Below, piece by piece: positions 50,341 to 53,863 of a DNA stretch of 64,000 nt. This DNA comes from Escherichia coli. GTDB taxonomy: Bacteria > Pseudomonadota > Gammaproteobacteria > Enterobacterales > Enterobacteriaceae. A program made the position numbers and the translations under genes. Position 1 is the stretch's first letter; each line of letters starts with the position of its first letter. Location: assembly GCF_002854065.1 (NCBI RefSeq), contig NZ_CP024147.1, one strand, 5' to 3'. The notes under the pieces were generated by a model that saw only the letters and a list, made by a program, of their open reading frames with translations, did no database searches and was not told where the DNA came from.

Positions 50341-50352
50341 GTAAGATGCTTT

Positions 50353-50432
50353 ACGCCTGATGCGCTGCGCTTATCAGGCCTACGAAACGTATCTACCCGT
50401 AGGCCGGATAAGGCGTAGACGCATCCGGCAAA
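50353..50432. repeat. REP elements between deoC and deoA
   Basis: gcctgatgcgctgcgcttatcaggcctac and gtaggccggataaggcgtagacgcatccggca. Confidence 0.6.
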
Positions 50433-50466
50433 AGCCGCCTCATACTCTTTTCCTCGGGAGGTTACC

Positions 50467-51789: not shown

Positions 51790-51819
51790 CGGTATACTGA
51801 TCTGATCATTTAAATTTGA

Positions 51820-53064
<1,245 letters not shown>

Positions 53065-53079
53065 TAATGGGTGCGGCTT

Positions 53080-53120
53080 GATGCCCTCACCCCGGCCCTC
53101 TCCCTCAGGGAGAGGGTGAA
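53080..53120. repeat. GC-rich inverted repeat (ccctctccc-tca-gggagaggg) between deoB and deoD
   Basis: Perfect 9-bp stem at about 53096..53116 within gccctcaccccggccctctccctcagggagagggtgaa. Confidence 0.4.
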
Positions 53121-53143
53121 AACATGTTGATAAGGATAAAACA

Positions 53144-53863
53144 ATGGCTACCCCACACATTAATGCAGAAATGGGCGATTTCGCTGACGTAGTTTTGATG
53201 CCAGGCGACCCGCTGCGTGCGAAGTATATTGCTGAAACTTTCCTTGAAGATGCCCGTGAAGTGAACAACGTTCGCGGTATGCTGGGCTTCACCGGTACTT
53301 ACAAAGGCCGCAAAATTTCCGTAATGGGTCACGGTATGGGTATCCCGTCCTGCTCCATCTACACCAAAGAACTGATCACCGATTTCGGCGTGAAGAAAAT
53401 TATCCGCGTGGGTTCCTGTGGCGCAGTTCTGCCGCACGTAAAACTGCGCGACGTCGTTATCGGTATGGGTGCCTGCACCGATTCCAAAGTTAACCGCATC
53501 CGTTTTAAAGATCATGACTTTGCCGCTATCGCTGACTTTGACATGGTGCGTAACGCGGTAGACGCGGCTAAAGCACTGGGCATTGATGCTCGCGTTGGTA
53601 ACCTGTTCTCCGCTGACCTGTTCTACTCTCCGGACGGCGAAATGTTCGACGTGATGGAAAAATACGGCATCCTCGGCGTGGAAATGGAAGCGGCTGGTAT
53701 CTACGGCGTCGCTGCAGAATTTGGCGCGAAAGCCCTGACCATCTGTACCGTGTCTGACCACATCCGCACTCACGAGCAGACCACTGCCGCTGAGCGTCAG
53801 ACCACCTTCAACGACATGATCAAAATCGCACTGGAATCCGTTCTGCTGGGCGATAAAGAGTAA
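53144..53863 (+). CDS. deoD: Purine nucleoside phosphorylase
   Basis: Track ORF, 239 aa, [33 protein letters not shown]... Confidence 0.95.

Follow-up and report, generated by a model that had tools for sequence, protein, structure and literature searches.

The GC-rich hairpin between deoB and deoD of Escherichia coli is the core of a BoxC repeat copy

The window analysed here is a stretch of 64,000 nucleotides of E. coli DNA, in which deoB (ORF 51841..53064, ending with a TGA stop codon at 53062..53064) is followed on the plus strand by deoD (ORF 53144..53863, starting with an ATG at 53144..53146). Both genes are named from the RefSeq annotation of identical sequence. The spacer between the stop and start codons is 79 nt long, includes tgcCCTCACCCcggCCCTCTCCCtcaGGGAGAGGGtgaaaacatgttgatAAGGAtaaaacaATG, and carries the deoD Shine-Dalgarno sequence AAGGA at 53132..53136 (plus strand). 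Positions 52865-53343 are 100% identical to E. coli strains M217 (NZ_AP019189.1) and MB31 (NZ_CP073962.1).

Within this spacer, the arms CCCTCTCCC (53096-53104) and GGGAGAGGG (53108-53116) form a perfect 9-bp stem around the loop TCA (53105-53107). An additional G53095:U53117 pair lengthens the stem to 10 bp, giving a main hairpin at 53095..53117 (plus strand, G+CCCTCTCCC / TCA / GGGAGAGGG+U) with a calculated RNA folding energy of -18.8 kcal/mol. A search of the whole 64-kb window gave this pattern a single time. It was absent from all 100 dinucleotide-preserving shuffles even with two mismatches permitted, and the 91-nt region around it folds more stably than its shuffled counterparts (z = -2.49). 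The hairpin is real and non-random, and sequence, fold and shuffles together bear out the perfect GC-rich stem described in the original prediction. Its placement inside the operon was equally correct: the stem lies in the transcribed spacer separating deoB from deoD and does not reach the Shine-Dalgarno sequence. Its position upstream of deoD also stands, with the distance of about 30 nt now corrected to an exact gap of 27 nt between the end of the stem and the ATG.

The BoxC/PIT/TMECO elements have been described since the 1990s. The three names, BoxC (Bachellier et al.), PIT element (Hoyne, Maher et al. 2000/2002) and TMECO (Holder et al. 2015, PMC4666352), stand for one family. The published TMECO consensus, 5'-CCCTCNCCC N3-6 GGGNGAGGG N3 GGGNGAGGG [G/T/C/-]-3' (Holder et al. 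2015, PMC4666352), matches our sequence exactly on the minus strand at 53084-53116. On the strength of this pattern and of the K-12 copies, the TMECO/PIT core can be delimited as a 34-mer at 53083..53116 (minus strand, CCCTCTCCC-TGA-GGGAGAGGG-CCG-GGGTGAGGG-C), whose second loop, CCG, assigns the copy to type B. The core is identical at 33 of 34 positions to K-12 TMECO no. 1 and no. 4, the one difference being a loop base. Similarity to the K-12 copies at hrpB-mrcB, argF and ilvC-ppiC continues into the flanks, gttttc and catca(g/a)(c/g)cgcac, which are conserved in 22 orthologous copies as well. Counting its flanks, GTGCGGCTTGATG and, at the opposite end, GAAAAC, the full BoxC repeat unit spans approximately 53069..53124 on the minus strand. 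This length of about 55 bp agrees with the 56 bp published for BoxC, one of two reported repeat-unit lengths of 56 and 50 bp (PMC2267715). The hairpin is thus the Watson-Crick core of one copy of BoxC, a dispersed intergenic repeat of about 55 bp in the Enterobacteriaceae, built from the three blocks CCCTCNCCC / GGGNGAGGG / GGGNGAGGG. The third of these blocks, which reads CCCTCACCC on the plus strand (53084..53092), had gone unnoticed in the original prediction, as had the second helix in which it takes part and the repeat nature of the element.

The genomic distribution of the sequence is that of a multi-copy repeat. A query with the 79-nt spacer gave 34,057 hits spread over 4,518 complete E. 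coli genomes; the median number per genome is 8 and the highest is 19. The copy discussed here is intergenic, between the deoB stop (53064) and the deoD ATG (53144), and no further TMECO copy was found in the 64-kb window. Supplementary Table S8 of Holder et al. 2015 (PMC4666352) includes an identical 34-mer for both E24377A and 55989. In E24377A we confirmed that the entry, at 4959886-4959919, falls between deoB (end 4959867) and deoD (start 4959947), and the 55989 entry has a matching genome position; the family is therefore known and this copy already listed. An Rfam scan at a permissive E-value returned as its best match an irrelevant miRNA family (E = 0.27), whose 19 bits fall far below the gathering score of 55.5. 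For annotators, the implication is that hairpins of this kind should be annotated as members of a repeat family, not as regulators specific to the locus. The TMECO consensus pattern also appears in at least 120 stretches of IMG/VR viral contigs, with several copies on some of them; these contigs may represent host fragments or other taxa such as cyanobacteria. Holder et al. (PMC4666352) report no phage association for TMECO.

In this copy the minus strand, which serves as the template, is the G-rich one, and the deo mRNA therefore has the C-rich version. Two adjacent stem-loops are predicted in this transcript, at 53069-53092 (-11.7 kcal/mol) and at 53095-53117, the latter being the main hairpin. 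The 5' helix (53069..53092, plus strand, GGGUG.GGC...GCC..CACCC) begins 5 nt past the deoB stop codon and would pair GGGUG at 53069-53073 with the CCCTCACCC block, which also supplies the third strand of the triplex proposed for this family. The A-rich leader and the deoD Shine-Dalgarno sequence are single-stranded in the predicted fold.

We surveyed one genome per species using a degenerate pattern for the DeoB C-terminus, which yielded 37 Enterobacteriaceae. In 21 of the 37, BoxC occupies the deoB-deoD junction and is oriented as in the window, among them Enterobacter, Leclercia, Lelliottia, Huaxiibacter, Phytobacter, Pseudocitrobacter, Citrobacter freundii and Escherichia sp. E1V33, and some of these junctions also carry a partial tandem duplicate or an extra REP. 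Elsewhere the position is filled differently: Raoultella, Enterobacter asburiae, Citrobacter sedlakii and others carry REP/BIME sequences there, and the K-12-type hairpin is seen in E. albertii, E. whittamii and Escherichia sp. MOD1-EC7003. A spacer related to the K-12 type is also present in 'Raoultella sp. BIGb0138', where the altered stem still pairs (GGGCGGG-GACTT-CCCGCCC). The window spacer is identical over its full length at 77 of 79 positions to that of Escherichia sp. E1V33 and at 71 of 79 to that of Pseudocitrobacter faecalis, which indicates a copy that is old or was exchanged between genera, and not a recent insertion in E. coli. In Enterobacter and its relatives, partial tandem duplications of the left half of BoxC (GGGTGCGGCCTGATGCCCTCACCCCAACCCTCTCCC without the purine block) are followed by a complete copy; they look like the product of local slippage or recombination inside the element.

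Across 22 orthologous BoxC copies the three blocks are near-invariant, and the loops and flanks drift. Paired cells make up 98% of the alignment in the 5' helix and 90% in the main helix. Eight cells in the 5' helix hold U-G or G-U wobbles (alignment columns 15-16 with 22-23, corresponding to window positions 53076-53077 with 53083-53084). On the opposite strand these would be A-C mismatches, which gives a slight hint that pairing has been kept on the mRNA-sense strand. Only two stem cells are compensated, a result that counts against a structural role in the mRNA of the kind known for REP sequences. A second point against such a role is that the stem is mismatched in most K-12 copies, so the perfect hairpin is not the conserved trait of the family.

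Within E. coli itself the junction exists in two forms. The 79-nt BoxC spacer was found in 2489 of 5,426 complete genomes (46%) and a 56-nt spacer in 2935 (54%), together 5424, the number of genomes matching the deoB-deoD junction query. Neither this split nor the conservation of the deoB-deoD copy across genera was described in the BoxC/PIT/TMECO literature that we found. The shorter allele, present in K-12, an O157:H7 strain and the uropathogenic strain F11, has a single-copy hairpin unrelated to BoxC (GGGCGGAG-CGTTGA-CTCCGCCT, -14.2 kcal/mol). This hairpin, GGGCGGAGCGTTGACTCCGCCT, has an 8-bp stem and is followed by TTGTTATGTC, and a simple scan flags it as terminator-like. The window itself comes from a strain with the BoxC allele, not from K-12. 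Alignment shows that the coding flanks of both alleles are essentially identical and that only the spacer has been replaced, with the deoD Shine-Dalgarno region AAGGATAAAAC unchanged. We did not succeed in deriving the 56-nt allele from the 79-nt one by a simple deletion: global alignment gave only 42 identities in 81 columns and no clear breakpoints. The allelic difference is a replacement and not a clean insertion. A further change is seen in E. coli MB53 (NZ_CP073939.1 3857360-3858127), where IS200C sits in a K-12-type spacer directly past the hairpin and its T-rich tail (junctions ...CTCCGCCTTTGTT | IS200C | ...TATGTCACAAAAAGG), enlarging the deoB-deoD spacer to 768 nt. Since the spacer alleles differ, deoD expression data from K-12 need not apply to BoxC-allele strains such as E24377A, 55989 or O121. 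If the K-12 hairpin attenuates transcription, read-through into deoD could differ between K-12-type and BoxC-type strains.

Taken as a whole, the data are best explained by an old BoxC copy that is transcribed as two stem-loops, does not terminate transcription and probably exerts a small, REP-like effect, an account to which we give moderate confidence. According to this model, the element would be transcribed inside the deoCABD/deoBD message and fold into the two adjacent structures, leaving the deoD ribosome-binding site free and causing no transcription termination. Its most likely effect would be passive, as a barrier to 3'-to-5' exonucleases that shields the upstream deoB (deoCAB) message. 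The effect would probably be small, and any strong hairpin could supply it. With a structure only 5 nt past the stop codon, a slight hindrance of deoB translation termination is also possible. By analogy with REP sequences, a role of this kind in mRNA stability is plausible. Our search of the literature on deoB/deoD terminators and deoCABD mRNA stability returned nothing specific to the deoB-deoD spacer, and the Term-seq data of Adams et al. 2021, as far as they were accessible, contained no deoB or deoD entry.

Weak, indirect support for such a role comes from the recurrence of strong hairpins at particular positions in the operon. All 40 Enterobacteriaceae deoB-deoD spacers examined, which amount to only about 4-6 independent states, contain a hairpin of -14.2 kcal/mol or stronger, be it BoxC, REP/BIME or unique, and the alternative hairpin of 'Raoultella sp. 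BIGb0138' has been kept despite a change in its stem sequence. Between deoC and deoA, a strong hairpin is present in 19 of 19 species, formed by REP/BIME or by unique sequences such as GCGGCGGGTTTTCCGCCGC. The deoA-deoB spacer has a strong hairpin in only one of 25 species; in the other 24 it is an unstructured, conserved stretch of 51-53 nt. The internal deo promoter P3, located upstream of deoB, might account for the constraint on this last spacer. In the window, the deoC-deoA spacer (50341-50466) holds a BIME-like inverted REP pair whose best hairpin reaches -38.6 kcal/mol. The 51-nt deoA-deoB spacer (51790-51840) is unstructured, with a best hairpin of -2.1 kcal/mol, and its CGGTATACTGATCTGATC... 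sequence is conserved across genera. Against a REP-like role, hairpins of -14 kcal/mol or stronger are just as present in 7 of the window's 12 same-strand spacers, and published functional tests of PIT elements saw no effect in vivo. Outside the family, a deoB-deoD hairpin of -14 kcal/mol or stronger was seen in only three of six more distant Enterobacterales, which rules out its being universal at this junction.

A serious rival to this explanation treats BoxC as a neutral or selfish element that leaves deo expression unchanged, a reading that we regard as possible but somewhat unlikely. It would have landed long ago in the sole part of the junction that tolerates insertion, past the stop codon but ahead of the roughly 27-nt leader used in ribosome binding, and would persist through gene conversion with other copies or for lack of counter-selection. 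Several lines of evidence favour neutrality. PIT elements gave no phenotype in published promoter, terminator, polymerase or conjugation tests, and the genes neighbouring them show no published functional pattern. The 54% of E. coli genomes with the shorter allele do without BoxC at this junction, and the spacer tolerates even the IS200C of MB53. Hairpins are common in spacers generally, and distant Enterobacterales often lack a strong one between deoB and deoD. What speaks against neutrality is that not one of the 40 Enterobacteriaceae spacers is empty of a strong hairpin, that the blocks stay near-invariant across genera while loops and flanks drift, and that the wobble changes are strand-specific.

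A second alternative, following an idea of Holder et al., locates the action in the DNA. The G-rich (minus, template) strand, when single-stranded, could fold into an intrastrand purine-motif triplex at which polymerases would stall and rearrangements would be frequent, with the hairpin relevant only as a part of that triplex. Type A and type B TMECO consensus oligonucleotides do form intrastrand triplexes in vitro as judged by CD and NMR, they stop primer extension, and TMECO loci vary more among E. coli strains than control loci (PMC4666352). The deoB-deoD junction displays an 'intergenic change' of this sort, with two unrelated spacers between identical coding flanks, and in Enterobacter it contains partial tandem duplications of the element. 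We nonetheless consider this explanation unlikely. In vivo DMS footprinting did not support a stable triplex (PMC4666352), instability would be a side effect and not a function, and the retention of the copy in place across genera argues against strong local instability.

A bolder version of the REP-like account holds that the deoB-deoD and deoC-deoA spacers of Enterobacteriaceae are selected 'hairpin slots', in which BoxC, REP/BIME and unique hairpins are interchangeable and the alleles tune the ratio of DeoD to DeoB. We think this improbable. If true, it would mean that a stem-loop just past a stop codon sets the relative stability or translation of operon segments, that the 46/54 split in E. 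coli is a maintained polymorphism tuning the DeoD:DeoB ratio, and that BoxC has acquired its first RNA-level role.

It is very unlikely that the element acts chiefly on deoB translation, with a structure close behind the stop codon stalling the terminating ribosome, provoking tmRNA tagging and lowering DeoB output. This idea borrows from REPs, which are reported to reduce translation of the upstream gene when they lie <16 nt from its stop codon (Liang et al. 2015, as summarised in PMC12306157). The 5' helix does begin at 53069, and in every allele and species the first structured element starts no more than about 15 nt past the stop. Yet this proximal helix is weak (-11.7 kcal/mol), and the strong hairpin begins 31 nt past the stop, beyond the reported 15-nt range.

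Finally, it is extremely unlikely that the hairpin terminates transcription in part, as an intrinsic terminator or attenuator that reduces read-through and gives differential deoD expression, as first proposed: the sequence 3' of the main stem, GUGAAAACAUGUUGAU (its tail also written GUGAAAACAU or GTGAAAACATGTTGAT), lacks a U-tract, promoter and terminator scans of the region placed no site at the element, and PIT elements showed neither promoter nor terminator activity and left RNA polymerase unaffected (Hoyne and Maher, as cited in Holder et al. 2015, PMC4666352). In favour of termination stand the strong GC-rich stem within the operon and the terminator-like K-12-type allele at the same position. 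A further point against it is that the REP/BIME sequences found at deoB-deoD in other genera precede A-tracts and not U-tracts.

Set beside known systems, the element shares with Rho-independent terminators a GC-rich stem-loop in a transcribed region (here 10 bp, -18.8 kcal/mol) and departs from them in the missing U-tract and the negative tests of its family; the K-12-type allele fits that class better. The resemblance to REP/BIME goes further, as these too are GC-rich, hairpin-forming dispersed repeats in transcribed spacers near stop codons, and they occupy the deoB-deoD junction in Raoultella, E. asburiae and C. sedlakii as well as the deoC-deoA spacer of the window. Higgins, Newbury et al. 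reportedly described REP/BIME in intercistronic spacers such as malE-malF. Stabilisation of mRNA has its precedent in REP/BIME and would extend to BoxC by analogy. By eye, the element does not match the REP consensus (a palindrome of the type GCC[G/T]GATGCG.. / ..CGCATCCGGC). The two sequences are unrelated, the three blocks and the triplex potential being features of BoxC, and a RAYT-type transposase or binding protein is something we did not meet in the BoxC literature, which we consulted for other purposes. From BoxC/PIT/TMECO there is no essential difference: the three-block consensus, the type B loop, the intergenic setting, the multiple copies and the flanks are all alike. What distinguishes this copy is its first loop, TGA here and TGT in the nearest K-12 copies, and its location, K-12 having no copy between deoB and deoD.
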